DNA of 64,000 nt from Anaerolineae bacterium (lineage in GTDB: Bacteria; Chloroflexota; Anaerolineae; Fen-1058): NCBI GenBank assembly GCA_046328575.1, contig JAXLWI010000019.1, forward strand, positions 1,153 through 65,152, written 5' to 3'. A model generated the notes under the pieces. It was not told where the DNA came from and did no database searches. It was given only the letters and a program-made list of their open reading frames with translations. The position numbers were made by a program, and so were the translations under genes. Shown here in pieces: positions 29,240 to 48,849 of this stretch; the first letter of the stretch is position 1; every line of letters begins with the position of its first letter.

Positions 29240-29275
29240 CACAGAGACACGGAGTGTGAACCCCGTGTCTCTGTG
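29240..29275 (-). repeat. intercistronic stem-loop between substrate-binding-protein and ATPase genes
   Basis: CACAGAGACACGG / CCGTGTCTCTGTG perfect 13-bp arms, 10-nt loop. Confidence 0.45.
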
Positions 29276-30369: not shown

Positions 30370-31318
30370 TTAGCTTTCGCCGCGCTCGAACGGTTTATTC
30401 AAGGCTGCCGGCTGGCGAGCGCGATTCACCGCGAATACCAACGCCACAATCGTCAAGATATACGGCAGCATAACGGCGATATCTGAGGGGATCTTGACAC
30501 CGAAAATTTGTCCGCCCAGCACTTGCACCCACAATTGCAGCGCATTCACCGAACTGAACAGCAACGCGCCCAACATGATGCCGACGGGTCGCCAGCTGCC
30601 GAAGTAAACCAACGCCACGGCGATGAAACCTTGGCCGGCAGTGAGATTATCCTGGAAGAGATTCAAAAGCGCGATCGACAATGAGGCGCCCGCTAACCCG
30701 GCCAGCACTGCGCCAAGGCACACGCAGAAATACCGCACCCGATTGACATCCACGCCCAGCGTATCCGCCGCCGCCGGATTCTGCCCCACAGCCTTGATCT
30801 TTAGGCCCCACGTGGTCTTTTCAAAGAACCACCACGCCAGCGGCACCAACAGGAAGGCAACGTAGACCGGCAAGCTCTGCTGGAAAAAGATCGGCCCGAG
30901 CACGGGGATGTCGCTAATGCCGGGAACATTCAGCGGCGGGAAACCATCGACGGTCTTGACGGTGCCGACCAACACTCGAAACAACAGGCTGGACAACCCC
31001 GTTCCAAACAACGCCAAACCGATGCCGCTGATGCCTTGTTCCGCTTTGAAGGTCACGCTGATCACCGACATCAGCAGTCCCATCAACAAGCCGACGAACG
31101 CAGCCGCCAATACCCCTAACAACAAACTGCCAGTGTGGAGCGTCACATAGAAGGCCGAGAAAGGCCCCACAACGCTGATGCCATCCACGCCGAGATTCAC
31201 CACCTGAGCGCTGCGCGGGCATCTCGCCGATCGACGCGTACAAATACGGCGTCGCCAAGCAGATGGCCGAACTCAACACACCAATCACAATGGCCAGCGT
31301 ATCTGTCTGTTGGGTCAT
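30370..31318 (-). pseudogene. BMP-family ABC permease (YufQ-like) with frameshift near 31210
   Basis: N-terminal piece MTQQTDTLAIVIGVLSS...ASIGEM (start 31318) continues in the +2 frame as ...VVNLGVDGI...; rest of ORF intact to 30370. Confidence 0.6.
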
Positions 31319-31329
31319 GCCTGCGACTC

Positions 31330-32332
31330 CTTCACCCGTGTCTGCCTCCGACACGCAGCGAGCCGCGCGTTTGCGCGCCCAATACTGTGAGCCGACGACG
31401 AACAGCACGATCAAGCCGGATGCGTCAGTCAGCATAGGGGAGCACTTGCACCGCCCGCTGCATCTTGTCAGCCCCGACAGGCAAACTGCCGAAGAGATAA
31501 AGGCCGGTATCGCGCCTAAGGATGCAGGCCGCCAAACAGCTTTACCGCCACAATTCCGCTAAAGCCATAGCCGCTGGTAATACCTTCCAACAACCGGTGC
31601 TGGACGCCGATAACCTCGATCACCCCGGCGACGCCCGCCAGACCACCGGCCAGCGTCAGCGACAGCATGATAAACCGGCACGCGAATGCCCGCGTAGCGC
31701 TGAAGCGTCGGGATTCAAACCCACCGCGCGGATGCGATAACCGATCGTGGTGCGCCACAACACGTACACCACAATCGCCAAGATCACCGCGATGATCGTG
31801 CGGTGTTTAACAGCGTCTGTGGAATCAAGCGCGGCAGCCACACTTGTTCCGGCTTGACTGCTCCGATTGCGCCAGATATTGCCGGCTGACACACCGGCCG
31901 GATCAATCAACGGCCCGCGAATCACGTAAGTTCATGAACTGCAACGCGATGGCGTTAAGCATCACCGTACTCAGAATCTCGTTGACGCCCAAACGGGCTT
32001 TGAGCACGCCTGGAATGAAGCCCCAGACGCGCCCGCAGAAGCCCATTAACAGCGTCGCCGGGATCAGGATCAGCCCGCCCACTCGCGGAACTGCAGCGAG
32101 AACCACGTCGCCATCACCCGCGCCCAAAGATGATCCTGGCCTTCCGCACCGATGTTGATCCTGGCCAGACGCGATGCAGATCCCCAACCCGACCAGCAGC
32201 AAGGGCGTCGCTTTGACCAATGATTGCGTGAGACCGGACACGCTGCCCAGCACGCCTTCGATCAGTGCGCCATATGCCTGAAATGGATTAGCGCCGAGCA
32301 GCACTGACCTGCTCCCTTTTTGGTACCAGGTC
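31330..32332 (-). pseudogene. BMP-family ABC permease (YufP-like), 3' portion, at least 3 frame changes
   Basis: Fragments LLGANPFQAYGALIEGVLGS..., AVILAIVVYVLWRTTIGYRIRAVGLNPDAS, MLSLTLAGGLAGVAGVIEVIGVQHRLLEGITSGYGFSGIVA in different frames; boundaries approximate. Confidence 0.5.
32317..32332. repeat. direct repeat flanking IS remnant (right copy TTTTGGTACCAGGTCA)
   Basis: Imperfect 15/16-nt match to 33468..33482 TTTTGGTAGCGGTCA. Confidence 0.3.
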
Positions 32333-33467
32333 AAATAGAATTCGCGCCCGGATTGTTGGGTCGATAACGTCGCCATTTGGGCGGGCGTTCGGTAAGCCAG
32401 CGCGCTATGGGGACGTTATTATTACTCCTTTCGCCAGTGCTCGATCACGATCGTCGCCTCGTGACCGGTCGTGAACCATTCGCGATTCAAGCATTCATCA
32501 CGGAACTTACCGTAGAAACTTTCGATGAAGCCATTTTGCCGGATGACCCGGCGCAATGAAACTCAGCCCGACGTGCTGGTCGTGCAACCACTGTTGGACC
32601 AAGATCGCCGTAAACTCACTGCCGTTATCGACCGCAGGAATTGCGGAGAACCGGTACCGTCGTGTGCTGCAAGACCGCGCGTCGGTTGCTGCGCGAATCG
32701 ACGGTGCGACATGAATCGCCAGACATTCGCAGGTGAACTCATCCAAGATACTCCGGGGTTTTTGAAGAGCCGGCCATCCGCCAAGCGATCAAACAAGATG
32801 TCGTATGTCCAGACATGGTTGCGGTGCATGGCCTGCTGGGGTCGGTCGTCACGGCGAATGGCCCGTGGGCGGCGCACCCGCGCTGGTTGCACGGCAAATC
32901 CTTGTTAACCACAGAAGCGCCAGGCGCGCTTGAACGAGAAGCTGCGCCAACATCGCTACGCGCCGGTAGCCAAACCGCGGATGCGTCATCACCGGCTGCA
33001 TCGCCGTAATCGCGCAGACGTGGCTGGTTGCTGCAAGCGATACCGAGCCGTACTGCGCGCGATCCCAACTCCAGCGACAGGCGCTCCGCTGCGACAGCCC
33101 TTGCTCGTCAAATGTGCCGGGACTTCATGACGCTGCGCGCCGGCGTTCACCATTTTTTGCCAACACTTCCTTTAAGCCCTTCATTGGCTAACAGCGCTTC
33201 GGCCAATAGTTTTCAACTTGGCGTTTTTCAACCTCTAAAGCTTTCAAGCGTTTGGCTTCATCGATTTGCAGATTGCCATATTTTTGTCGCCAACGGTACA
33301 GCGTCGCTTCGGCAATGCCCGTCCGCCGACAGAAGTCGGCGACGGATTCGGTGCCCGCCTCAATGCGCAGTGGCATGACGATTTCTTCAGCCGTATGTTG
33401 TTTCATCGAGTGCGCTCCTTTGTCTAGAGTTAGGACGCAACACTTTCTCATTACACTTGGTACTAAT
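32333..33467 (-). mobile_element. degenerate IS3-family insertion sequence (orfA intact-ish, orfB fragmented)
   Basis: OrfA HTH and leucine-zipper (TLYRWRQKYGNLQIDEAKRLKALE); OrfB integrase-core fragments (HRNHVWTYDI, DNGSEFTA, QNGFIESFYGKFRDECLNREWF ending in TAATAATAA at about 32424); inserted inside the permease gene. Confidence 0.6.
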
Positions 33468-33545
33468 TTTGGTAGCGGTCAGCACCAACATCACGCCGCC
33501 GATCAATAGCGCCGCTACCACGGCCAACTAATGGTAGTGAGGCAC
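33468..33545 (-). pseudogene. 5' fragment of the IS-disrupted BMP permease
   Basis: MPSYSVPHYH-stop-LAVVAALLIGGVMLVLTA (first TM helix) abutting the IS end. Confidence 0.4.
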
Positions 33546-33724
33546 TGAATAGGACGGCATTCCGTCGATACGAGCTTTGCGGCGTTGCAGACGAACTTGG
33601 GGAACAATCGTCGATGGCATAAGTTAAGAGTATAGTGATTTTGCCGGGTTAGGCAAATGACAATCATATCAGGGTGAACAAAAGCATGCCGATTCCGGTT
33701 AGGACTCTAGTGTAAAATCTGGGT

Positions 33725-34540
33725 ATGACCTACGCCACTTTGATTACAACCGCTGAACTTGCCCGGAACTTAACGCGCAAACCCGATTGGGTCATCTTCG
33801 ATTGCCGGTTTACACTGGCCGATCGGGAACGTGGTCGTCGTGATTATCTACACAATCATATTTCAGGTGCGATTTACGCCCATCTCAACGACGATCTCCG
33901 GGCCGATTGTATCGGGCCAAACCGGACGACATCCGCTGCCCACTGTCGAGGTCATTAGTCGTTTCTTTTCCCGCACAGGCGTAGATTCAACCATACAAGT
34001 AATCGCGTACGACGATGCTGGCGGCAATAGCGGCGTTTGTGGTGGTTATTGCGCTGGTTAGGACCGCGTGACGCGGTGGCGATTTTGGACAGCAGCTGGC
34101 GAAGTGGACGCAGGCTGACGGACCAACAACGGCGACGATTCCAACACCCACGCCGCGCGTTTTTGTACCGCAAAGCCAGTCGGACGACTGGCTCACCAGC
34201 GATCGAGTACCTGGCGCAGATCGGCGATCCTAACTTTAAACTCCCTCGATTCGCGCAAGCGCCGATCGCCTATCGCGGTGAAAACGAAACGATCGATCCG
34301 ATCGCCGGTCACATCCCCGGCGCGATTAGTGCGCCCTATGCGGACAACCTCAACCCCGATGGAACCTTCAAACCGATCGAGCAACTGCGTGCCCGCTTCG
34401 AATCGCTGTTGGGCGACACATCCGCCACGTCACGCCGCATTTGTGCGGCTCAGGTGTCACTGCCGCACACAACATTCTGGCCGTAAAACACGCCGGACTC
34501 GGTGAGGCGAAGTTGTATCTCGGTTCATGGAGCGCGAGTG
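33725..34540 (+). pseudogene. sseA: 3-mercaptopyruvate/thiosulfate sulfurtransferase (rhodanese, SseA-like) broken into at least 4 frames
   Basis: Pieces VIFDCRFTLADRERGRRDYL / TGRHPLP / WWLLRWLG...IAGHIPGA / CGSGVTAAHNILA...LYLGSWS in successive frames. Confidence 0.6.
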
Positions 34541-34600
34541 GATCACAGACCCGTCGCGCCCGCGAGCATCGGCCCCGAGTGACGAAGCTAGCCACTCCCC

Positions 34601-34635
34601 CTTCTCCCGAGTTGGCAGTTCCAACTCAGGAGAAG
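34601..34635 (+). terminator. hairpin downstream of sseA remnant
   Basis: CTTCTCCCGAGTTGG-cagtt-CCAACTCAGGAGAAG (15-bp arms, 1 mismatch); no U-tract. Confidence 0.3.
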
Positions 34636-35722
34636 GAGCCGAAAGATGAGGCACAAGCCAGCCGCATTCTTTGTCGAGAGAAGATTATACTCTCCAACCC
34701 ATCGATGCGCTGGCACGACACGAGTGATGAACGCGTATCGAAGCAGGCGTAGTGCAACACAACAAACGGCTTGCCTTTTTCAGCAGGCAAAACAAGGTCA
34801 CACTGTGTCTACCAAAACCATTCTAAGTCTTAGGCCTGGCCTGCGTTGCGCTATTTGTGATAGAGATTCTGTTTGATCCATTCTATTATGTGGCGAATGT
34901 GTTCGTATCGGCAGATCCGGCACGCACATTACCAATCGCAAAAGCGCGCTGGCAAAGCCTGGGGCATAACCAACTACGCGGTGAAGGTCAGAGGCGGTGT
35001 ACCGCTGGTCTGTATGTTTCTGGTGATCAATTGATCGTTCAGCTATAACCGGCTTGTTAGTGTATTCGCCAGAGCCAAGCCATTTGATGAAACTTCGCCC
35101 CAAAAACATTCTGGCTACGGCAGAAGATTGGCAGGCGTGTCCGTTTCAATGAATTGGTTATACCAAAGATGTTTGAACAGATCGAGCAGAATTTACAGCA
35201 AATTGATCCTGTTAAGGAAGAGTTGAAAGTTGGCTGAGTGAAACGCTTGGAACATGCTGATTACACCCTGAATTATGGATATGGGCATGGAGTCTTTAGT
35301 CCAGGCTTTGAGAGGTATACTGCATGAAACACAAGTTTAGAAGAGAATTTCAAGTCTTTGCCCGCAACGGTCACAAAAATTGAAAATCCGGTTTCACAAC
35401 GTCACCGTTGCGTTCGAGCCACGAATTGCCCAACCCGCCGATGCTCCCGCGCCAGAGCTCGCTGGGAATGAGGGCCGGTCAGATTCAAAACTAATCCACA
35501 CCCCACGCGCCGAGGCCGCCCAAAGAAACACTCCGTTATCTCCAAGGCCGCCGTTAACGCGCAGCAGGAGCGATGGCTTCGCCATCGGCTACTCAAACCA
35601 AGCCTGACGCGGGCTTCCCTACCTTTGCCGTCGATTTGCAATCGATGGCGAACCCCAACAAAAAGGACGCAGAGCGATGTTCGCACTCACGTCCTCGGTG
35701 TCCCCTCAACAGTAAATCAAAC

Positions 35723-36402
35723 CTACAGGGTAAGGCTCTCCCCCGGCTTCGAGATATGCACCTGCGCCGAAGTCTCCGCCGTCACCCGTTTCGCCCACGC
35801 GCTCACGTCCTGCGCGATCGATCCCCATGTATCGTAGTGCACAGGAATTACATAGCAGGTTGCAAAAGTCTCACCGCGCGCAAGGCATCATCCGGCCCCA
35901 TCGTGAAGTTGTCGCCAATCGGCAGCACAGCCAGATCGAGGCCTTCTTCGCCTATCAACTTCATGTCTACAAAAACAGCCCCGTATCACACGCGAGATAG
36001 ATCTTCTTGCCCTCAGCGGTTAACAAGAACCCCGCCGGATTGCCTGTCCGATCCATCGGGCAACGCCGAGCCCATGCATGGCCTGCGTCAACTGGTAGCC
36101 GAACGGATAGTTGAAGCCGCCGCCGATATTGCTGCGCGTGCACATTGCTCACGCCCTTGCCCTCGAACCAATTGGCGATCTCGAAGTTGGCGATGATTTG
36201 CGCTTGTGCGTTTCGCGATTGCCACGGCGTCGCCGACGTGATCGCCGGCAGCCGTGGGAGACAAGAATGTAATCGGCTTGGGCCTTGTCCGCCGTAATCG
36301 GGGCGGCGGGATTGCCGCTAAAGAACGGATCAATCAGCAACTTTGTGCAGGCTGCATCCAGCGGCACGTCATGTCCAAACAACGTATGCTTGATCGACAT
36401 CG
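35723..36402 (-). pseudogene. UPF0173-family metal-dependent hydrolase (beta-lactamase fold), frameshifted
   Basis: Fragments [117 protein letters not shown] in different frames. Confidence 0.5.
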
Positions 36403-36479
36403 TTACAGGCCTCCTGTAAAGGGGATGTGAAATAATCATAGCACCTGATGCGTACTGCGTATTGCGTAATGTTTCGCCG

Positions 36480-37140
36480 CTACTGCTCGGTCACGAGAAA
36501 GCCCGCCACACAAACTTCGGCAGCGCCAACTGTCGCCGCCAACGCCACAGTTCGCAGCCGAGACGGTACAACCATTCGGAATTGAGCCGCTGAATCCAAT
36601 GGGGTGCGCGCCGCTGTGTGCCAACGACAAAATCGAGCGAGCCACCGATGCCGATGCCGACCTTCGCGCCCGTGCGCGCCAAATTCGATCGATCCACTTG
36701 TCCTGCTTGGGCGCACCGTACGCCACCAACACGATATCCGCGCCGGATGCTTGAATGCGACGAACGGCGTCGGCATCGTCGTCGGGTCGCGGCCAGACCC
36801 GCCACGTCGACGATGCGAATACAGCAGGAAGGCGTAATTTGATCGCGAAGTTGTTCGGCGACGCCATCCGCTGCGCCCAATAGAAAAATCTTCCAGCCGG
36901 TATCTGCGGCTCGCTCGGCCAGCCGATAGATCCGTCGATCCGGCGACTCGTTCACGAATCGGCTGAACCGCTTTCGCCACGCCGCCCAGACCACGCCGAT
37001 ACCGTCCGGCAGATTCAGCGCTGCTCGATCGAGAATCTGCTGAAATTCAAGGTCATTCTGCGCAGCCATGATAGACTCGGGGTTGACGGTGCAGATTTGA
37101 CGCACCCATATAAACGACAAATTGCTCGATCAGGTCGAGC
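36480..37140 (-). pseudogene. WecB/TagA/CpsF-family glycosyltransferase, frameshifted mid-gene
   Basis: ILDRAALNLPDGIGVVWA, KIFLLGAADGVAEQ, C-terminal WIQRLNSEWLYRLGCELWRWRRQLALPKFVW; middle in another frame. Confidence 0.5.
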
Positions 37141-37199
37141 GTTTCTGTCATCGTTACGTCGTGAACAGGAATGCCGAGGATGGTCACTGCTCAAGTTTG

Positions 37200-38300
37200 C
37201 CATTACATCTAAATCTGACAGAATGACCAGATGACAGGCTGAATCTTGCGTGAGATCTTCCGGTCATTGTGTCATCCGCCGCGTTGTGTGCGGCTCGCCA
37301 TCTTGTCACCGATGAGGACTTCTTCAAACACTTTAACACGGTAGCCGCGCACTGCCCACGTGAACCGCTGTGCCTGCTGATACCCACGTTCCGATCAGCG
37401 TGCGGCTGAGTCTACGTCGCCGACGATTTGCTTCAGGCCATGCGCGATCTCTTCGACGTTCAACGGATCGACTTGCAGCGCGCGTCGCCGCCCCACTTCC
37501 GGCGGCGACGGTGTTGCTGCACACCACCGGCACACCGCACGCCATCGCTTCCAACACCGGGGAAACCGAAGCCTTCATACAACGACGAGACGCAAACGCC
37601 TTCGCCCCCCGATAACAGCGCGGCTTTGTCGACTTCTTCCGCGTAGCCGATGAAGCGAATGTTACGTCCGGCTTGCTTGATCAACTGCTCATCAGAACCA
37701 GCCGCGTTTGCCCGCCAGCACCAACAGGCGATTCGTGTTATTGGTGCGATGCCACGCTTCGATCAACCGCGTCAGATTTTTGCGTGGCTGGAGCGTGCGC
37801 AAATACAACACGTACTCGCCAGCACAACGCCATGCCCGGTTTTCACTCGCGCGATCTCAGCGTACGCGATCTTCGACGCGCTTCACCCACGGATCAAGAC
37901 CCAGATGACCACCGTGATCCAGTCGGGCCGCGCACCGTACCGCGCGATGAGATCGCGTTTGGTGGCGCAGCCAGATCCGCCAAGACTCGCGCGGCCGTCA
38001 GCGTGTGCCAGCGTGTCGACCATCGAGATAAAGGCGCTGTCCGGTGGGATGCGTTTCAGGAAAGAACAGGTAACCCAGATCGTGCACGGTGACCACTGCG
38101 GCGCGGATGCACAATCGGCAGGACGTCGACAGCACAAACAGCAGATCGGGGGTCTGTGTCAGCATCTCCCGGCAGGCGGACTTGCGTCCACAAGCGCGGG
38201 GGCTGGCATGATTCTGGCTTCTGGTCTGGTTGCCGATTTGAAAACGCGGCGGTCGATTGAAGTACAGTCGGAATGAAAACCGATCGGGCGCACGTTCAAG
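37200..38300 (-). pseudogene. GT4 (group 1) glycosyltransferase, fragmented
   Basis: IRFIGYAEEVDKAALLSG...SLYEGFGFP and LEAMACGVPVVCSNT in different frames; extent approximate. Confidence 0.4.
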
Positions 38301-38899
38301 CAGCGCGTCAGATCAACTGGCGCGAATAGAGTTCGGTACCGGTGGCTGTTCGATCACCGATCGGCTGGCATCCACCCCAGGCAGTAATGGCGGTTCATCA
38401 CGAGTGAATAATCAGCGCGGCTTTCGAACAGGTTGCGGCAAGACGATCAAGCCCAAGACGATCAGCGGCACCGGTAAAGGCGGCCAGGGTGCGCCAGTTC
38501 GGCATATCGCCGAGCGTGAAGGCGAAGCCGCCCCGCGCTACGAGCAGCCAAGATCGTCGCTGGAATCCACAGGCCCATATCGCGCATACGGCCGGTCAGC
38601 CACAACACGACGAGCAATACCGACAATGAGTGGGAAAGCTGGCCACAAACGGCCCCACCCGATTGGACCGAAACCGGGTACGTTGATGTGCAGCGTGAAG
38701 AGGAAGAAGAACAGGCCGACCTTGAAAGCGATCGTGCCGACAAACGCCAGGCCGGGATCATGTCGTCCGCCAAAGAGGTAGCCGCCCCAGAACATCAGGC
38801 CGACCAGCACGACGATGCCCGGCCACAATTCGGTAATGGACAACGACGGCAGCACGCCAAAAGTTGACCAACGGGAAGAACGCGCGAGCAGATGAGAAA

Positions 38900-39600
38900 C
38901 AGCGCCGGAACTATTGCACCACGTCGTTCCGCGATCACCTCCGCTAGCGGCATTGTATCACAGGTCGCGCAAAAACGCTACTCAATTTGATCGGCCGTCG
39001 CGCCCGCGCACGGCCGCGCCGAGGGCGGCGTTGTCAGTCCACGGCACGGTCGATGGCACCGCCCGACGTTTCACCGCCGTCCACGATTGCCTCGTGCGCC
39101 CCGTCAAGTTGATCCAACACTTCGCGCGCACTACGGGGATTCAGTCCCGCGCAATCAGTTGGCGCTCGTCACGGCCAACGGTCCGGTCAGGCGCATCAGA
39201 GTGCGCGTCAGATCCAGATCGGGCATGCGCACCGCCACTGTTCAGTCGCGCTCACTTCCGGCAACCTTTACGCGGATCTTTACCGGCAGCACCAGCATCA
39301 ACGCCGAGGCCCAGGGTATATCAAGCGATAGGCAATCGGCGGAATGTCGATCGCCCACACCAGTCGAGATCAAGCTTTGCTGTCGGCGATCAAAATGGGG
39401 ATTGGCTTTTTCAGGCGGGCGTTCGCCTGGCAACGTACAGCACAAGGCTGTGTGACCGTCAAACGCCTTGCATCGTGCCGAATGGTATACCGTGTCAGTG
39501 GGGAACGCGACGAGTTTGCGCTCACAGAGAAATTTGCGCGGCAAAATCCATTTGGTCAGGGCGTAGAATTTGAGTCATGGTGATTCATCACTCGACGCGT
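38900..39600 (-). pseudogene. L-threonylcarbamoyladenylate synthase (Sua5/YrdC/TsaC-like), fragmented
   Basis: KLVAFPTDTVYHSA fragment (YrdC PTDTVYG signature) plus downstream pieces; extent approximate. Confidence 0.35.
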
Positions 39601-40099
39601 AAGACCTGACGTTGACGAAAGCGTTGCCATCGAACGAGAATCGCACGCCTTCACAATAGTTACAGAACGACCAGAACGCAAGTCCCGTCCGGGTGGCAAA
39701 CAACCGATCGTGCCGCTTCAGGCACGATACCGCCATGCAAAAATGATCAATGCGCGGCCGTCTCAGCACCGCTCGCACGATGCTGCGCCCCAGATCCGCC
39801 ATGCGTCGCGCATACATCGCGACGACCGCGCGCGGCCAGGCTCCCAGCCACGCGGCAAACCAGCATTCCACTGCACCGCACGCCCCGACTTCTTCCGCCC
39901 ATCACAGCCAATTGCTCGATTTCTTTCATCGACGGCAAAGCCCATCGCGATGGCGGTTTCGAAGGCGCGGGGCGGCGTGCTGGTCACAACGCCAGCGAAC
40001 GGTCCAGCGCACTTCAGGCACGCGGCGGGCTAAATCAACACCGGCTTGTGTCGCATGCTGGCCAGGTCATATTGCGCATGGTATGGCGTCGAACCGGCG

Positions 40100-40930
40100 T
40101 GCGCACGGTTCGGCTTCCAGGCTTCAACTCAATCACGGCCAATCCAGGTCGATCCGGCGTAATCTGCGGCGACCTGATTCGCCTGCGTCGAGGCTGGTGC
40201 CCAGGCTTTGCGGCCTGGTGATCGCTGTCTGCGCTGATGCCGCGATTTCAGGACGATCACGCGCTCTGCGGCCTGGCTGCGCGTGGCGCAGTTCGCGGCA
40301 GTTCACCCGGATCAAGTCCAGCCATCCGGCCCGCCGATGAACGCCATCTTCGGTTCGGCGCGAATGGTCTTCTGCAAAAACGGCCAGTCTTTGTCATCGA
40401 TGTAAGGCAGGTTGGCGGCCAACAAATCCGGCTGCTCCGTCGCGAAACCAACAGTTGCCCGCACGAAATCAATGCCGTGGAATCGAGGTTGATGTTGCTG
40501 CGCATTCGACGTGCCAGATCGATCGCTTCGGCGGACAGATCCGTGGCGACGATCACCGTTGGGCAAGCTCTTGGCCAGCGTCACGATTACGCCGAAGCCA
40601 GTACTGCGATGTCGGCAACATGGGCGCGGGATGGTCGCGGAACCGATCGAGCACGAACTCGATCAGGCATTCAGTTTCGGGGCGCGGGATCAGCATCACG
40701 ATCGGTGATCAGATCGAGATCGTAGAACTCACGATGACCGACGACGTAAGCCAGCGGTTCGTCGCGCAAAACCCGATCGAGATCGATCTGGAAGCGCATC
40801 GATCTGATCGGCGGGGGTGGGCGTCAAGCCGCGCCAACAACTGCGTGCGCTCGATGCCGAGCGCATGCGCCATGACCGCCTGTTTTCAGCGCGGCGCATC
40901 GATGTCGACGGCTTCAAATTGTTGAGCAAA
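40100..40930 (-). pseudogene. prmC: release-factor glutamine methyltransferase (PrmC/HemK), fragmented
   Basis: IVATDLSAEAIDLARRN-like and NLPYID (NPPY-type) ... EPKMAFIGGPDG fragments in different frames. Confidence 0.45.
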
Positions 40931-40980
40931 CTGTTGACACAGTTGGTGAAAGGTGAGCGGTATCATTCATGGATAATGGG

Positions 40981-41030
40981 TAACAACTAACGGGAAACGA
41001 GTATACGGTAAGTCGGTCGTTACTCGTTAA
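40981..41030. repeat. second locus of GTAACGAGTAAC-family motif (GTAACAACTAACGG GAAACGAGTATACGG ... CGTTACTCGTTAA)
   Basis: Two direct imperfect units and one inverted unit, in the prfA-prmC intergenic gap. Confidence 0.4.
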
Positions 41031-41049
41031 TCTGAATAGTCCAGCCGCT

Positions 41050-42150
41050 TACCGCTTCTCGGCCTGATCGCGGGTCGAAAGTTCATCGTGAATTCGTCCA
41101 AATCGCCGTCAAAATCGTGTTCAGGCGATGGACGTGAGTTGACCTGCGATGATCGGTAACGCGGCTCTGCGGAAAATTGTACGTGCAGATCTTCTCGCTG
41201 CGCTCACCACTGCCCACACCAGAACGACGCGCAGCCATTCCTCGCTGCGGCGCTTTTCTTCTTCAACTCATACAGCGCGCGCGCAAGATCGACATAGCCC
41301 GCAGCCGATTCTGCAATTGCAGCCGTTCGTCCTGGCACCGACGATGCCAGGCAGGCGAATACCACCGTCAGGTTCTTCTACGTTCTGGCCGCCGCGCCCT
41401 GAACGATACACTTCCATCTCAATGTCTTTTTCGGAATGTCGATTTCCGCTTCGTCTTCCGGGCAGCACGCCACGGTCGCCGTCGACGTATGGATGCGGCC
41501 TTGCGCTTCAGTGACAGGCACGCGCTGTACACGATGCACACCGCTCTCGAACTTCACGCCGCGAATAAGCGCCCTTCCTTTCACCATGAAGATAACTTTT
41601 CTTTGAAACCATGTGCCGATATCGCTGCTCGGTTGATAACGGTTCGCTCTTTGAAATTATGCGTTTCGGCGTAGCGCGTGTACATCCGACAGATCGTGGC
41701 CCCATAAAAATACCGGCCTCGTCGCCGCCAGTCCCAGCGCGAATCTCGACAATGACGTTCTTGTCGTCGCGCGGATCTCGGCACAGCAAGACCTTGAGGT
41801 TGGCCTCCATCGACCCGACCTGCGCTTGCAGGCTGGTCACTTCTTCCGCCGCCATTTACGCCTGATGGATCGGCTTCCGACGCAACCAGCGCGCGCGCGC
41901 CTCGTCGGGTGTGCAGCGTCGCGATACTCACGATACGCTTCCGATTGGCTGTAAAAACAATTTGCGCTCCTGGCCGACCTCACGCAAACGATTGTAATCA
42001 GCGTCACTGCCGGATCGGACATCAGGCGTATTCAGTTCTTCGTAGCGGTTCTCAATCCCCGCCAGTTTTTTCGAGCAGTCTGTGACACGTCATTGAAATC
42101 AATCAATGAGGCGACCAGACTTTCGGTCGCCTCGTTTGTGAGCCTATTAT
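41050..42150 (-). pseudogene. prfA: peptide chain release factor 1, fragmented
   Basis: [17 protein letters not shown] and [19 protein letters not shown] in two overlapping frames (RF1 GGDEA...RMYxRYAE signature); classic prfA-prmC arrangement. Confidence 0.5.
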
Positions 42151-42175
42151 AGCCTAGACGCGGCTAGCGTGTCAA

Positions 42176-43500
42176 CGAATCACCGCGTTTTGCGCGCCTT
42201 CATAACCTCGCTTAGCCGCGGGTTTCTTGGCCGCGACTTTCTTTACAGGCTTCTTAGCAACGGATTTCTTCGCCGCTTTCTTGGCCGTCGACTTTTTCCT
42301 TGCCTGCTTCTTAGCGGCCGGTTTCCTTGGCGGTCGATTTCTTCGCAGCGACTTTCTTTGGCAGGTTTCTTAGCCGCCGATTTCTTTGCCGATCGTTTCT
42401 TCGGGGCCGCCGGTGTGGCGGATTCGATCAGGACGGTGAACTGCGCGCGTTTCGTCTCGATCACGTTGAGCAGACCATCGAACGACTTGATGAATTTATC
42501 CGCCTCAATCGACGCTGCTCTGTAGGCGGTGAGATCGAAGCCCAACACCCGTAGATCAGCCACCACTTGCCGTGCGGCGGCAAGATCGGCATCGACGGTG
42601 CGCGCCACAACAGGTATGATCAATAGCGGCATAGGTTTCCGGCGGCCACCGGTGTTGACGGTGTCCGGTCCGATGAGCGTATCGACATACAACACGTCGG
42701 GGTACTTAGGGTTCTTGGTGCGATTTTGCTTCGCGCGCTGCTTGCGCGCTCCGACTGCGCAGCCAGTTTCATGAAGCGTTCACTGCCAAACAGTTCGCTG
42801 TACTTCTCAAACACGCCATTGCGAATTGGCGACGGCGGCTTTGCCCATCAACGCCACGGCCTGTGCCGCCTGCGGCCTTTAAGCGCCGCACGAGTTCTTC
42901 CGGCTTCTTGTCGAGCAACGTATCAACCATGACGACAAAGAACGACGCCACCGACGCGATGTGATCGATGCGGCGATTGGCGGCGACGCGGCGTTCCAGT
43001 TGCGCGAATATGCGCTTCGGCTACGGCAATGTAATGATCCATAGAGAACATCAACGCTAAACGGTGCGACGTTGATACCGTCATACAACGCCTCTTCGAT
43101 CGCGGGCAGACCTTCTTTGGTCGCCGGGATCTTGATCATAACGTTAAGGCGTTGTAGGGTTTGCCACAGCCAGACGCGCGTCGGCCAGCGTATAAAATCG
43201 GTATCGCCTTAATTTCGGCGACACTTCGATGCTGACATCGCCATCCACGCCGTGTGTTTGGCGAAAGACGGTTCGAAACTCATCCGCCGCCATTCCGACA
43301 TCTTCGATAGTGAGGGCGTCGTAAATCTGCTCGACGCCAGCAGCGGCAGCCAGCACCTTCATCGCTACGGTAATGATCACTGCTTCCGCCGATGGCGCCT
43401 CGAAAATCGACGGGTTCGAGGTCATGCCCAGCAAGCCTTCGGCTATCATCGCCTTGAAAACTGCCTGCCGTGATCATCTGGCGCTGAATGTTGTCGTACA
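42176..43500 (-). pseudogene. tal: transaldolase followed by a Lys/Ala-rich repeat tail, fragmented
   Basis: LLGMTSNPSIFE, MIKIPATKEGLPAIEEALYDGINV, FEKYSELFGSERF, LYVDTLIGPDTVNT in different frames; 42176..42420 encodes AAKKQARKKSTAKKAAKKSVAKKPVKKVAAKKPAAK. Confidence 0.5.
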
Positions 43501-43599
43501 GATGCTCTGGCCCAGTTGAGCGAGTTGCTGAATCTTATTCGTGTGTATGGCTCTGTCCTCGATCCCCGCTCCACGTGTCACCTTAATTTAGATCGCGAT

Positions 43600-44060
43600 G
43601 ATTCGTGTTGATTAGTGGATCAAGCGTTCTTTTCGATTGCTAATACCTTATAGTCGCCGCTGAAATTTCTCGGCGGTGTTGAACTGCAGCGCCAACGAAA
43701 GCCAGCACAATCTCGCGCGCCAACTCCACGCCGATGATGCGCGCACCAAGGCACAGCACGTTCATCGTCGTACACCTGATGGGCCGAATACGTATCGTGG
43801 CACAGGCCAGCGCGAATACCTTTCATTTTATTTAGCGGCAATACACGCGCCAACGCCGCTGCCGCAATCCACGTTGCCGCGTTCGGCACTGCCGTTTTTG
43901 GACGGCCTGGCCTGCAATAAAGCATAATCAGGATGGTCATCACCAGCAAGGTAGGTGTATTGCGCCGAGGTCGTGACGTCGTGACCGGCCTGCTCGAGAG
44001 CGTCAACCGTCCGCTTTGAGGGAGTAACCGCCGTGATCGGCGGCAATGGCCAATTTTCAT
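43600..44060 (-). pseudogene. rpiB: ribose-5-phosphate isomerase B, fragmented
   Basis: NVDCGSGVGACIAAK and KGIRAGLCHDTYSA in different frames. Confidence 0.5.
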
Positions 44061-44175
44061 CGAAGCGATCGCCCAGTAGCCAGTATCGGTCGTGATTCTC
44101 AGTATAAAGGTTACACCAAAACGCGAAGATCTACCAGCCTATTTGGGCAAGTGACGGCACCGATTTGCAATAAAA

Positions 44176-44200
44176 CGAGCGATCTGAAAACAGATCGCTC
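44176..44200 (-). terminator. rho-independent terminator 3' of tRNA-Leu
   Basis: Minus strand: GAGCGATCTG-tttt-CAGATCGCTC then TTTTATTG. Confidence 0.5.
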
Positions 44201-44202
44201 GA

Positions 44203-44284
44203 TGGGCCAGAAGGACTCGAACCTTCACGTTCTCGCGAACGGGAGATTTTAAGTCTCCTGCGGCTGCCATTTCGCCACCGGCCC
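44203..44284 (-). tRNA. tRNA-Leu (anticodon UAA), class II with long variable arm
   Basis: Acceptor GGGCCGG/CTGGCCC+A, anticodon stem GGAGA/TCTCC with loop CTTAAAA, variable arm CGTTCGCGAGAACG, T-loop TTCGAGT; CCA not encoded; T-arm/acceptor junction 1 nt short. Confidence 0.6.
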
Positions 44285-44330
44285 GTGACCGCCATTCTAA
44301 CACGCCCAGCGCGGTCACGCAACTACAAAT

Positions 44331-45610
44331 ACTTCAACTCGTGTGCTTGCCGTTCCAACTCCTCGCGGAAGTCAGGATGCGCGATGTTGATCAATGAACG
44401 TGCTCGTTCGCGGATGCGCTTGCCGTACAACTCCGCCACGCCATACTCGGTGACGATGAAGCGGATGTGATTGCGCGTGGTCACTACCGCCGCGCCCTAT
44501 TTCAACATCGCCACGATCTTGCTGGTGTTGGTGCCTTTGATCATAGCCGGGGCCGGTAGCGCGATGATGGGAATGCGCGGTGCTGCGTGAGGCGCCGTGC
44601 ATGAAATCGACCTGGCCGCCAACGCCGCTGTAAAACCGCGGGCCGATCGGATGCCGCGCACACCTGCCGATCAGATCGACTTCGATCGCGCTGTTGATAG
44701 CCACCATCCGATCGTTCTGGGCGACGACGAAAGGATCGTTGATGTACTCAGGTCGGGTGCAGTTCCACGATCGGGTTGTCATCGACAATCGTACAAGCGC
44801 TGTGTACCCAGCATGAAGCCCGCCACGATCTTTTTGCCAGGATGCAGACTCTTGCGTTCGCCGTTGATCCTGCCGCGCTCCACCAGATCGATCACGCCGT
44901 CGGCAAACAGTACTCGATATACACGCCCAAATCTTTGTGCGTGGTCAGTTCCTTCAACACCGCGTCCCGGGAATTGCGCCGATACCGGTTTGCAGTGTTC
45001 CGCACCGTCAGGGATCATGGCCGCGATGTGCTTGGCGATCCGCGCGGCCACTTCGGATAGCCGCGCATTTGAACCTCAGGCGGTTGTAATCGACCGGAAT
45101 AATGTGCGTCGTTTGCGACATGAGACCGAACGAGTCGCCCAGCGTGCGGCATCTGCTGATTGACTTCGGCGACAATCTTAGCGACCTGTGCCGCGGTTTA
45201 AGTGCGCCCACTTCAATGCCGAACGAGCAATAACCGTGTTCGTCAGGCGGGCTGACGTGAATTAAGGCCACGTCGATGGGCGAGCAGACGCGGCATCTCT
45301 GACAAAAACATCGGCGTGAGAAAGTCGGCGCGGCCTCGTTGACGACGCGCGTGCGGTCATCGCTGATGAACGGCGTATTTGACGCGCATGTGCTCTTCCA
45401 TGCCCGGCTGCACATACGCCGCGTCGCCCACCGTCGTTGCATGATTTCAGTAGTGCAGTTCCGGCGCATAATCAACCAGCGCCTTCATCACCTTTTGTGA
45501 TGCCGACAGTTGCCCGTTAGAAAGACCCGCATACCGGGCTTGATCGCCCGTACGGCCTGATCGGGCGTAGCGGTACGTTCCTGATAGAGTTTCGTCCAAG
45601 CAGCCATACT
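44331..45610 (-). pseudogene. acetyl-CoA hydrolase/4-hydroxybutyrate CoA-transferase family, fragmented
   Basis: VALIHVSPPDEHGYCSFG, EYINDPFVVAQNDRMVAINSAIEVDLIG..YSGVGGQVDF, C-terminal ...FIVTEYGVAELYGK in different frames. Confidence 0.5.
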
Positions 45611-45619
45611 GTCACCTCG

Positions 45620-46720
45620 ACCCGTTACACGTAGTTGGTGCAGCGCGGATTGCTCAACATCTCCGTCGCGAGTGTTCACGCCACGCGCCAGTGACGGATC
45701 GTCGGCGATGGCCTGATCAAGCCCTTTACGCATAGGCACGGAATGTAAGGCCAGGCCGCATTGTTGAAGGCATGCCGTGGCGGTGCGCGCCGCCGCGCAC
45801 CGTCATATTGGGGACGCAGTAATGCGTGACGTTCTCTTCGATGAACGTCGGCTTTACGATGCGTCGTCGGCCGGCTGGTTTCGACACACCCGCCTGATCG
45901 ATCGCCACACATCGCGAGCACGCACGCCTTCATCGTGCGCACCATCTCGCGCGTAATCACGATCGGGTGCGTCACCGGCTTGATAAATCGCGCCGATCAG
46001 TACGTCGGCAAACTTCACGACTTTGCGCAGGTCTGAACTCGTGCGACACCATCGTCACGGCGCGACCACCAAGATCGCATCGACGGTTTGTAGCCGTTTC
46101 AGATCCCAGTCGAGCAGGTAGACGCATTCCAGCGCCGATGCCACAAAACGCGCGCTGCGCACGTGCCTAACGTGCCCGCCAACTATCACAACTTCGGCAG
46201 GCGCTTTACCCGGCACGCAGCTCAACAGAGCATCACCTTTACCACCCCCGATCATTTTTGGGCAACATCGCGGCGATTTGCACCATCATACAGCCCACGG
46301 CTTGCGACAATGGCGTGAGAACTGGCAGAGTGCCATCATCTTGCTGGATCATTTCGTAGCCGATGGCGGTATTCTTCTGCAGCAAGGCTTCAACACGCGA
46401 ACGTCGCGCCGCGGCGGTGTAGCCCCATTAACGTCTGGCCTTCGCGTAACCAATCGGCCTCTTCAGCAGTAGGCCGCGCGACTTTCAATACGAGGTCGGC
46501 TCGTCCATACGCCTCTTGCGTGGAATAGACGATCTTGCCGCCACCAACCCATAGTGCGCGATCGCGCTGAAGCCAGCCCCCAACCCAGCACCGCGTTCAA
46601 TCACACGTGTGCCCTTCGGCGGTCAGCAGTTTAGCGCCAATCGGCGTCAAACCGACGCGGTATTCACCTTCGCGCCGTTCACGTGGAATACCAATATCCA
46701 TGTTTGTCACCTCATCTTGG
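45620..46720 (-). pseudogene. ald: alanine dehydrogenase, fragmented
   Basis: ADLVLKVARPTAEEADWLREG, GKAPAEVVIVGGHV (NAD fold), KPTFIEENVTHYCVPNMTVRGG, ITREMVRTMKACVL in different frames. Confidence 0.5.
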
Positions 46721-46789
46721 AATGAGAGATTGAAAGACGGCGGCTCAGCTCATGGCCGCCTGCCATTTTACAACTTTTTCACGCTCCCT

Positions 46790-47240
46790 TTCAACAAGAT
46801 CGGGCGTTCGGCCACGCGCAGGACCCGATCGGCCACACTGCCGTACGTCCAGCGGGCAATCCCCGATCGGCCATGCGCGTTACCACATCGCGATCAAATC
46901 GGCCTGAATATCGTGCGCATACGAGATGATCTCATTGGCCGGATTGCCAAAGCGCACTTCGCTCGACAATTCGACGCAAACCTGAGTCAGATTCTTCTCA
47001 ACGCCGTGCAGATAGTTGCGCAGTTCATCTTCGACCCGCTTCCGCCTCACCGGTTTCGTCAAACGGCTCGCCCGGATACACCGCCATCGGATAGACCATC
47101 GCGGAGGCCGCCGCTAAATCGACGACCTGCGCGACCGATAGCGAATAGACGTCAGCGCGCCGGCACGCCTTCAACACCACCTTCACATGCGGTAAGACCT
47201 GTTCAGCCAACGGCGCCCATCGGTGTAACGAGAATTCGGC
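46790..47240 (-). pseudogene. universal stress protein (UspA family), fragmented
   Basis: VELSSEVRFGNPANEIISYAHDIQADLIAMW C-terminal USP signature in one frame, N-terminal part in another. Confidence 0.4.
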
Positions 47241-47467
47241 GGTACATGGTAGCCTCCTGGCGGATTATAAACGAAGGTTGAGGCTGCGGTAGGGTATACC
47301 CACTACGGGTTAAACCTATGTTTAGATTAGCATCGATCTGGCTCAAGGGAGTGAACAACGTCTCATTCTGTCAGGTTGAATGTCACCACACGCTTGATCG
47401 GTTGGTAAAATGAAGCGCGGGTACCCGTATTCGGATACCCGCGCTTGCTCCAGGAGGAGATTGCCCG

Positions 47468-47839
47468 TTAGTTATTTGTGGTGCCAAACGATCGCGCCAA
47501 TACCGCGATACCGGCGATGACCAGGAAAATCGGCCAGACGACACCCCAGTTCATATTGAACAGGAAGATCAGGGCGACTGCCAGCGGGAACAACCCGCCG
47601 ATGAAGGCTCCGGTGACCGCGGGCGTAATGCGTTGCCCGTTGTTCTGGTAGATACGCCACGCGCTGCCCCACGCCCCCGCTGTGCCAAGCAGGATGAACA
47701 ATGCCCACCAATTACCAATGTTTAACACATTAAAGTTCTGCAACAGAAAAATTACACCCAACCCGATCAAGACTATCGCGCCAACCCAGGCGCCGCTGTT
47801 ACGCTGAACCGTTGGTTGAGAGGGTGGAAGTTCGCTCAT
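47468..47839 (-). CDS. hypothetical small membrane protein (4 TM)
   Basis: Intact 123-aa ORF, ATG with AAGGAGTGA RBS; four hydrophobic helices. Confidence 0.6.
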   Translation of the reverse strand: MSELPPSQPTVQRNSGAWVGAIVLIGLGVIFLLQNFNVLNIGNWWALFILLGTAGAWGSAWRIYQNNGQRITPAVTGAFIGGLFPLAVALIFLFNMNWGVVWPIFLVIAGIAVLARSFGTTNN

Positions 47840-47958
47840 GATGATGTCACTCCTTGGAAGTTATGAGCGCAGTATACTCGTTCTCATTTGAATATTTAAC
47901 TGCCTTATGCCTGAAATCTTCTCAGACTTAAGGCGGAGGTCGTGCGTGGTGCCGCCGA

Positions 47959-47987
47959 TTGACAGCCCTTCCTGCTTAAGGTAATCT
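47959..47987 (+). promoter_or_regulatory. sigma70-like promoter TTGACA-N17-TAATCT, predicted leaderless start
   Basis: -10 element ends 7 nt before ATG 47995. Confidence 0.35.
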
Positions 47988-47994
47988 AAGCCCC

Positions 47995-48849
47995 ATGTCC
48001 ACCCTAACCAAGGCAGCCGTGATCGATCGCCGCGAAGTACGCTATCGCCGTCGCATGAATCTACGTGTAACCACCCCAGAGCAAGCCGTCAAGTTCGTCA
48101 ACGATGTCGGCTTCAGTTTTCTCTTCCCAATTCAAAGCGTAGAGATGCCGTCCCTTTGGGACGCGATTGCCGGTCGGGTAATGAAAACGACCAATAAGCA
48201 CAGCGGCTACGAAATCGAGCGCACCTGGGGCTGGAAGGATGAAAGTCTCGATAAGAAATGGTGGTACTACGGCAAGCTGATCCGCGACAAGGCGACCCTC
48301 GTCAGCCTCGATGTTCTGCCGACCTTCTACGCCCTCAGCGAAAACTACGGCGACTACGAGAACGATTATCTCGAAGAGTATCGCACCGGCGCGATCTCGT
48401 CGGAAGCAAAACAGATTTATGAAGCGTTGCTGCAATATGGCGCGTTAGATGCCATTCGCTTGAGGCGTGAAGCGCGGATGAGTTCCGATGAAAGCAAGCC
48501 GCGTTTCGAGAAAGCCCTGACCGATTTGCAAGCCGGTTTGAAAGTATTGCCGATCGGCATCGCGCCTGTCGGCGCGTGGCGCTACGCCTTCATCTATGAA
48601 ATCCTGCCGCGCTGGCTGCCCGACGTGCCCGATCGGGCGCGGGCGATTAGTCGGACTGAGGCCCGCCGCCGGATCCTCGATCGTTACATTCATAACGTGA
48701 TCGCTGCGCCGCTGCCCACGATCGCGCGGCTATTCAAGTGGAAATCCACTGAAGCGCAGCAAGCCGCCGAAGCGCTGGCCGCCGCAGGCCGCGTCGAACT
48801 CGACGTCAAAGTGACCGGCATCCGAGAACTTCAATTGATGGCCAAATAA
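47995..48849 (+). CDS. conserved hypothetical protein, possibly winged-helix DNA-binding (YcaQ/AlkZ-like HTH_42?)
   Basis: 284 aa; N-terminal ...FLFPIQSVEMPSLWDAIAGR and Trp-rich segments reminiscent of HTH_42 family; assignment uncertain. Confidence 0.55.
   Translation: MSTLTKAAVIDRREVRYRRRMNLRVTTPEQAVKFVNDVGFSFLFPIQSVEMPSLWDAIAGRVMKTTNKHSGYEIERTWGWKDESLDKKWWYYGKLIRDKATLVSLDVLPTFYALSENYGDYENDYLEEYRTGAISSEAKQIYEALLQYGALDAIRLRREARMSSDESKPRFEKALTDLQAGLKVLPIGIAPVGAWRYAFIYEILPRWLPDVPDRARAISRTEARRRILDRYIHNVIAAPLPTIARLFKWKSTEAQQAAEALAAAGRVELDVKVTGIRELQLMAK

Follow-up and report, generated by a model that had tools for sequence, protein, structure and literature searches.

Does a block of adjoining genes that all appear broken, several of them for housekeeping functions, reflect decay of the genome, or does it reflect the way in which the sequence was obtained? 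We addressed this question for the window, a 64,000-nucleotide stretch of a metagenome-assembled contig of an Anaerolineae bacterium. The preliminary description, drawn from the sequence alone, had reported that no ORF exceeds about 220 aa at about 31.2–47.3 kb. This holds: the longest ORF between 31,163 and 47,334 has 224 aa and is itself spurious, lying antisense over usp (46607..47281), whereas flank ORFs reach 1,664 aa. The longest stop-free stretch per position has a median of 370–630 nt in the block; over most of the flanking sequence this median is 1,000–5,000 nt. All genes that had been named as broken, i.e., those for BMP-type permeases, sseA/rhodanese, prfA, prmC, tal, rpiB, ald, a CoA-transferase and usp, are present and disrupted, and so are genes for an MBL hydrolase, WecG and GT4 glycosyltransferases, a LiaF-TM-like protein, a Sua5/YrdC protein and a His_Phos_1 phosphatase (Table 1). 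The genes of the block need 6–42 frame corrections each and the neighbouring genes none. The frame jumps had been placed every 100–300 nt; they are in fact much denser: indel events, many of them compensating, occur about every 35 nt, and the whole block holds about 350–390 frame-breaking indels, all small.

Table 1. Features in the block and at its left limit (window coordinates; events are frame-breaking events).
Feature	Position	Strand	Remarks
ABC permease 2 (BPD_transp_2)	30370..31318	-	3 events, all past 31163
ABC permease 1 (BPD_transp_2), distal part	31315..32304	-	read-error frameshifts and true IS interruption
IS3-family insertion sequence, 1,177 bp	32305..33481	-	in permease 1; full of read errors
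ABC permease 1, first ~46 codons	33482..33620	-	aligns to L002 10304..10164; IS splits off remainder
rhodanese/sseA	33725..34590	+	frameshifted, 23 events vs intact 288-aa ortholog
1.16-kb segment	34563..35723	.	absent from L002, where 87 bp stands instead
MBL-fold hydrolase	35725..36400	-	frameshifted, 15 events
WecG/TagA-type glycosyltransferase	36480..37200	-	frameshifted, 23 events
GT4 glycosyltransferase	37306..38398	-	frameshifted, 38 events
LiaF-TM-like membrane protein	38412..38932	-	frameshifted, 11 events
Sua5/YciO/YrdC family protein	38958..39588	-	frameshifted, 31 events
His_Phos_1 phosphatase	39588..40106	-	frameshifted, 25 events
prmC (release-factor methyltransferase)	40122..40970	-	frameshifted, 41 events
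prfA (release factor 1)	41036..42083	-	frameshifted, 42 events
tal (transaldolase, HC2-like Lys/Ala-rich tail)	42180..43542	-	frameshifted, 41 events
rpiB	43620..44060	-	frameshifted, 11 events
tRNA-Leu(taa)	44201..44285	-	still detectable; 1-nt deletion and 1 substitution
acetyl-CoA hydrolase/transferase	44323..45608	-	frameshifted; AcetylCoA_hyd_C, AcetylCoA_hydro in different frames
ald (alanine dehydrogenase)	45625..46701	-	34 events vs intact 361-aa L001 gene
usp (universal stress protein)	46768..47247	-	9 events vs intact 157-aa L001 gene

We compared the locus with two independent metagenome contigs, L001 (JGI) and L002 (ENA), which jointly span both boundaries and are collinear with the window from the clean flank into the block. 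The flank of L001 is about 99% identical to that of the window, with identical AlkZ-like and LiaF-TM proteins, and its ald and usp genes are intact. In L002, whose identity to the window is about 92% in the clean flank, all genes of the series that runs from rpiB to the ABC ATPase are undamaged and collinear with those of the window. Gene order and spacing in the block are preserved, with no large deletions. Alignment to the orthologous locus of relatives, which had been suggested beforehand, shows all of these genes undamaged at the corresponding syntenic position in independent assemblies.

The same alignments define the error-ridden block as 31163..47334 (about 16.17 kb), with the first indel at 31,163 against L002 and the last at 47,334 against L001. 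At these two sharp points, one of them intragenic, the indel rate jumps between zero and about 3 events per 100 nt, and nearly all 250-nt bins inside the block contain indels. The only indels in the flank at 28.7–31.16 kb are one compensating pair (29255/29259), and the flank at 47.34–49.19 kb aligns to the intact reference with no indels, in agreement with the clean flanks and abrupt boundaries described earlier. The left limit falls within the permease 2 gene: its C-terminal 277 aa lie on the clean side and stay in register, and about 52 aa at the N-terminus are frameshifted. Substitutions follow the same limits. Against L001, 1,836 nt of the block show 51 indel events and 73 substitutions, compared with no indels and 17 substitutions in the adjoining 1,874 nt, an approximately fourfold rise in substitution density. 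Those in the block are spread over the three codon positions (19/20/26), and 38 of 65 alter the amino acid or create a stop codon; outside it, 13 of 16 affect third positions and are synonymous. Against L002, the synonymous share likewise falls from about 90% in genes of the flank to about 64% within the block.

The differences from L001 over the 1,836 nt aligned in the block amount to 40 bases deleted, 34 inserted and 73 substituted; the indel events (29 deletions and 22 insertions) are each 1–4 nt long, and some 56 substitutions are in excess. After removal of about 0.9% real divergence, as measured in the flank, the error amounts to about 7%, to which deletions contribute about 2.2%, insertions 1.9% and excess mismatches 3%. 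PacBio CLR reads have an insertion-dominated error profile, unlike the block, in which deletions, mismatches and insertions occur at similar low-percent rates. For raw Oxford Nanopore (ONT) R9.4 reads, a total error of about 5.7–8% with each class at about 1–3% has been reported (deletions 1.6–2.7%, insertions 1.1–2.4%, mismatches 1.2–2.2%), with transitions commoner than transversions, a higher error in high-GC DNA and about half of the errors linked to homopolymers (PMC8486125). The block resembles such reads in total error, in its low-percent rates of all three classes and in its excess of transitions (51 of 73 substitutions, 70%); the transition bias discriminates only weakly, since the flank divergence is also rich in transitions (11 of 17). 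It differs from them in its mismatch rate, which at about 3% is somewhat higher, and in having no detectable homopolymer enrichment in a small sample (PMC8486125). Homopolymer-associated errors had been expected, but only 8 of 20 single-base deletions lie in runs of at least two bases (background 41%) and 12 of 20 at non-repeated bases (background 59%), and 10 of 13 single-base insertions are unlike both neighbours, with just 33 single-base indels in all. The missing homopolymer signature points to raw single-read sequence and not to a poorly polished consensus. The tRNA-Leu(taa) gene, noted before as 1 nt short, indeed lacks one nucleotide in the 3' strand of the T-arm/acceptor relative to the copy of the relative; that a non-coding gene also carries errors counts for a read-error artefact.

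Intact and syntenic genes in independent assemblies, the density and spectrum of errors expected of raw reads, and the sharp limits together lead us to regard the apparent pseudogenisation as an assembly artefact; on these comparisons, the genes of the block are very probably intact in the real organism. The region from 31,163 to 47,334 is almost certainly long-read sequence from a single pass, in essence raw and in all likelihood of Oxford Nanopore origin, that was left uncorrected within a polished contig, where the platform and the reason for the missing polishing are what we infer. The earlier suggestion of an unpolished long-read or low-coverage patch in place of pseudogenes is thereby upheld.

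Second intact copies of prfA and tal had been proposed as a mark of a genuine duplication, and such copies exist: an intact 358-aa RF1 (MFN8598434) and a 458-aa Tal (MFN8598435) of the same lineage are encoded on a separate contig of 14,783 bp, about 2,100 accessions after that of the window. Accession and locus-tag arithmetic suggests that it probably belongs to the same MAG. Of the 26 assessable sites at which these two proteins depart from those of L002, the codons of the window agree with MFN8598434/MFN8598435 at 21. The 14.8-kb contig is most plausibly an accurate but redundant representation of the same locus. Intact second copies are equally expected under assembly redundancy.

These copies, along with the IS element within the block, are what a genuine pseudogene island would have in its favour, namely a decaying set of housekeeping genes with functional copies elsewhere, e.g., on the 14.8-kb contig. 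They fail to rescue a decaying duplication because the broken block occupies its native locus, where it is in register with the flanks and, on both sides, collinear with independent contigs, and its left limit falls in the middle of permease 2 with the clean part still in frame. Decay of bacterial pseudogenes is dominated by substitutions and biased toward deletions. The block instead has about 350–390 small indels with insertions nearly as frequent as deletions, preserved gene lengths, no large deletions and an indel to excess-substitution ratio of about 1:1, and its divergence of about 7% stands beside flanks that differ from the same reference (L001) by about 1%, nearly all synonymous. We therefore consider a pseudogene island extremely improbable, and the decaying duplicated segment named as the alternative in the preliminary description is not borne out. 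It is hardly more credible that a rapidly decaying copy occupies the native locus while a functional one was moved to, or retained on, another replicon or contig, such as the 14.8-kb one; an Anaerolineae population would then harbour 16 kb of essential genes all dying at once. Many adjoining disrupted frames and an IS element are indeed shared with pseudogene-rich regions of reductive genomes; however, real reductive decay does not stop in mid-gene or fully spare the flanks, shows a deletional bias with larger deletions, and does not place 40 compensating indels of 1–4 nt in a 1-kb gene. The fourfold rise in substitutions at sharp limits could also recall a tract recombined from a divergent relative, or local hypermutation (DGR-like or by error-prone repair), but neither process produces dozens of frameshifts per gene, the substitutions are blind to codon position and include stop codons, and at sites where the references differ the sequence beneath the errors agrees with the same lineage, which leaves such an origin with a negligible probability.

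Two routes may have brought raw sequence into the contig. A hybrid scaffolder or gap-closer may have bridged two accurate contigs, whose ends lay near 31.16 and 47.33 kb, with the sequence of a single spanning long read, with no later polishing and with the true 14.8-kb short-read contig left unplaced. The abruptness of both limits, with wholly clean sequence beyond them, the error level of a single read and the length of the block minus the IS (16,172 - 1,177 = 14,995, close to the 14,783 bp of the contig with intact prfA and tal) fit this account, but N runs and other scaffold marks are absent at the limits; we give it a substantial chance, somewhat short of even. We prefer an origin from a minority molecule. 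In the Anaerolineae (Thermoflexales-like, Chloroflexota) MAG, the sequence beside the block would have been polished and the block not, as the latter would come from a read of a molecule whose permease 1 gene had received the IS3-family insertion; the locus in its majority version would have been assembled apart, as the accurate contig of 14.8 kb that probably shares the bin. Polishing reads would in that event go to this contig, or fail to align on a template with 7% error, and the block would stay raw. A simple IS bubble alone would not suffice for an unpolished span of 16 kb. Short-read polishers are known to miss errors in places where reads cannot be aligned dependably, e.g., in repeated sequence (Polypolish, PMC8812927). 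The proposed case is similar in that errors would survive in multiply represented sequence whose reads are placed elsewhere or ambiguously; it differs in that the "repeat" would not be genomic but assembly redundancy between the 14.8-kb contig and the raw path.

Indel errors that fragment genes have been described for long-read (ONT/PacBio) assemblies (Kastor, PMC12007338; R10.4 near-finished genomes, PMC9262707). As in those studies, the frameshifts and stops found here mimic pseudogenes, stem from read errors and are revealed by intact orthologs; there, polishing removes them. The usual residual errors are, however, sparse (well under 1%), genome-wide and linked to homopolymers (PMC12007338; PMC9262707), whereas the present ones form one patch of 16.2 kb at about 7%, are not homopolymer-linked and leave the rest of the contig clean. 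In the deposited MAG (locus tag U0559_, contig of 66,863 bp), the patch would score as about 17 pseudogenes, including those for release factor 1, PrmC, transaldolase and RpiB; genome completeness would be underestimated, and counts of pathways and pseudogenes would be skewed. Judging from the accession numbers, protein databases have probably taken in about 23 ORF fragments that mean nothing, and the redundant accurate copy, probably in the bin, would inflate estimates of duplication or contamination. Where ORF length collapses locally between sharp limits and substitutions ignore codon position, an unpolished patch is reliably indicated even when no reads are at hand.

The value of the locus is that of quality control, and there is no biological discovery here; the only real biology in the block is the IS3-family insertion in one permease gene. 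The 1.16-kb segment between the rhodanese and MBL hydrolase genes has no Pfam match and no homolog in the compared loci. The transposase of the IS is recognizable in Pfam by an HTH_Tnp_1 fragment above the curated cutoff (E=2.1e-10) and an rve fragment below it (E=4.8e-5, 24 bits against 32.6), the latter in an error-laden piece of 79 aa. IS3 elements end in 5'-TG...CA-3' with imperfect inverted repeats and generate a target-site duplication of 3–5 bp. Their orfA and orfB are joined by a programmed -1 frameshift; in the present element, read errors obscure the frames. The insertion is absent from L002, relative to which its insertion point is precise; its termini are TG...CA with imperfect terminal inverted repeats, TGACCTGCTCCC and, reverse-complemented, TGACCGCTACC, and 4-bp GCAC direct repeats flank it at 32301–32304 and 33482–33485.

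Between about 31.2 and 47.3 kb of the window, the six-frame ORF listing contains no ORF longer than 224 aa, as the preliminary description had reported, against ORFs of 300-1,664 aa in the flanks. A reference-free measure, the longest stop-free stretch at each position summarized in 2-kb bins, agrees with this picture. Inside the block, the medians of all bins lie at 370-630 nt, compared with 1,000-5,000 nt for most bins of the flanks; where a flank bin falls below this, short genes are located there. The base composition is unchanged across the block limits. The left limit lies inside the gene of permease 2, one of two BPD_transp_2 ABC permeases at this end of the block, of which the C-terminal 277 codons are clean. 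In comparison with L002, an ENA contig about 92% identical to the window in the clean left flank, the indels begin at 31,163, 31,174, and 31,200 and continue in nearly every 250-nt bin to the end of the alignment. The adjoining stretch at 28.7-31.16 kb is indel-free except for one compensating pair at 29255/29259, an insertion and a deletion of 1 nt each, located 4 nt from each other in the space that separates the Bmp and ABC ATPase genes, which is probably real intergenic variation. On the right, L001, a JGI metagenome contig about 99% identical to the window in the flank, shows 0 indels and 17 substitutions from 47,334 to 49,194.

The genes broken in the block are intact at the same locus in relatives. 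The AlkZ-like protein encoded to the right of the block is found residue-for-residue on L001 (sample 3300009870, 3,716 bp), which also carries intact ald (361 aa), usp (157 aa), and LiaF-TM genes. A rough RF1 probe stitched from three frames of the block matched three proteins at 85-86% identity and all others at 79% or less, and one of the three top matches led to the 20.6-kb L002. Its gene order is the same as that of the window, with rpiB, tal, prfA, prmC, a His_Phos_1 phosphatase, Sua5/YrdC, and a LiaF-TM-like protein, followed by GT4 and WecG glycosyltransferases, an MBL hydrolase, a rhodanese, two BPD_transp_2 permeases, Bmp, and the ABC ATPase. In each case the ORF is full length and the expected Pfam domains are present. 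The CoA-transferase stretch, which the references cover only partly, was confirmed by fragments in different frames. A 50-mer from inside the block does not occur in GTDB representatives, and the assembly is not among them. In the GTDB genomes, PrmC relatives reached 76% or less (Thermoflexales/Anaerolineae MAGs), so that no near-identical genome was available, and a search of metagenome contigs with sseA gave no match above 75%. An exact look-up of the Bmp lipoprotein also returned no match, probably because of the start-codon choice.

When each intact reference gene was mapped onto the window, the in-block genes showed 6-42 frame-breaking indel events each, the count for permease 1 being inflated by the insertion sequence within the gene, and none was found in the flank genes Bmp, ABC ATPase, LiaF-TM, and AlkZ-like. 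Relative to L001, the stretch 45,485-47,334 lacks 40 bases, has 34 extra ones, and carries 73 substitutions; the indels make up 51 events of 1-4 nt (29 deletions vs. 22 insertions). The homopolymer association anticipated in the preliminary description was not seen in this small sample of indels. The error profile of PacBio CLR reads is dominated by insertions; the profile of the block is not, and we rejected a CLR origin for this reason. The rates amount to about 2.2% deletions, 1.9% insertions, and 3% excess mismatches, with 70% transitions. They are within or near the values published for raw ONT R9.4 reads, for which a total error of 5.7-8% with 1-3% in each class, an excess of transitions over transversions, and an error rising in high-GC DNA have been described (PMC8486125).

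Could the broken genes instead form a pseudogene island? Gene order, spacing, and lengths are kept throughout, and the substitutions relative to L001 fall almost evenly on codon positions 1, 2, and 3 (19/20/26), 38 of the 65 altering an amino acid or creating a stop, whereas 13 of 16 outside the block are synonymous third-position changes. The non-synonymous share relative to L002 is likewise about 36% in the block, with nine stop codons among these changes, vs. about 9% in the flank (10/108, Bmp and ABC ATPase). The block is thus noise over functional sequence rather than decay, and we consider a pseudogene island extremely improbable. Hypermutation, DGR-like or other, was rejected as well, and so was a tract recombined in from a divergent relative, as neither makes frameshifts. 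We are highly confident that the block consists of raw long-read sequence that was never polished, the reading already favored in the preliminary description.

Intact copies of prfA and tal, for which the preliminary description proposed to look, lie on a separate contig. The best RF1 match (MFN8598434; P0001, 358 aa) and the second-best Tal match (MFN8598435; P0143, 458 aa) are adjacent on a 14,783-bp NCBI contig under the same organism name as the window. At sites where the two differ from the L002 proteins, the window codons match them in 21 of 26 assessable cases and L002 in 2, so that they represent the window's own lineage. Judging from the accession numbering, this contig probably belongs to the same MAG: counting from gene 1,834 of the MAG, whose accession ends in 6336, the protein with the accession ending in 8434 would be about number 3,900, plausible for the same MAG of roughly 4-5 Mb. 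Without the insertion sequence, the block measures 14,995 bp, nearly as much as the prfA/tal contig, which suggests two representations of this locus in the bin. In our reading, the assembly contains the locus in two versions, one of them accurate and the other a raw read path. Such a path might arise if a gap-filler pasted a single read, or if the accurate copy attracted the reads meant for polishing; short-read polishing is known to break down where reads cannot be aligned reliably (PMC8812927).

Positions of features in the block and to its right
Feature	Position	Size	Description
IS3-family insertion sequence	32305..33481	1,177 bp	HTH_Tnp_1 and rve fragments; TG...CA ends; imperfect terminal inverted repeats
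Target duplication GCAC	32301-32304 and 33482-33485	4 bp	flanks the insertion sequence
Unassigned insert	34563..35723	1.16 kb	flanked by sseA and the MBL-hydrolase gene, which are convergent; L002 has 87 bp in its place
tal	42180..43542		L002 1310..2719
tRNA-Leu(taa)	44201..44285		sole RNA gene found
AlkZ-like gene	47995..48849	284 aa	right of the block

The insertion sequence and the unassigned insert are the two segments that the window has in addition to L002, and homologs of neither were present among 95 fetched loci. The insertion sequence interrupts permease 1 at about codon 46. Its inverted repeats, missed by the repeat finder through the noise, became apparent when the element ends were aligned directly. 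The insertion reflects a true transposition in the molecule that was sequenced and makes permease 1 the only gene in the block that is genuinely disrupted; it may explain why the assembly kept this molecule apart from the majority sequence. The unassigned insert has an AT-richer core at 34.7-35.4 kb, and its ORF fragments, their content obscured by read errors, gave no Pfam match. An Rfam search of the block found nothing besides the tRNA-Leu, which, as noticed before, is one base short and has one base substituted in addition.

Nine of ten clean flank proteins exactly match NCBI records in the range MFN8596299-MFN8596342, which belong to a 66,863-bp contig of an Anaerolineae bacterium MAG, and the LiaF-TM gene is U0559_09170 in the MAG annotation. 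As accession numbers track gene order in the flanks, 23 records (presumably MFN8596313-MFN8596335) are left for 30.37-47.4 kb, compared with 16-19 real genes, indicating that fragment ORFs were probably deposited as proteins. Exact look-up of the ten longest fragment ORFs, each read from its first start codon, gave no match in the protein collection. Gene calls within the block should be disregarded; as an artefact, it is of low scientific interest but of real curation value.

In this lineage, the tal gene encodes a Lys/Ala-rich C-terminal tail of about 90 aa matching Pfam HC2 (PF07382, histone H1-like). Among the 120 best Tal homologs, only about nine have such an HC2-like tail, all on Anaerolineae/Thermoflexales-like contigs.
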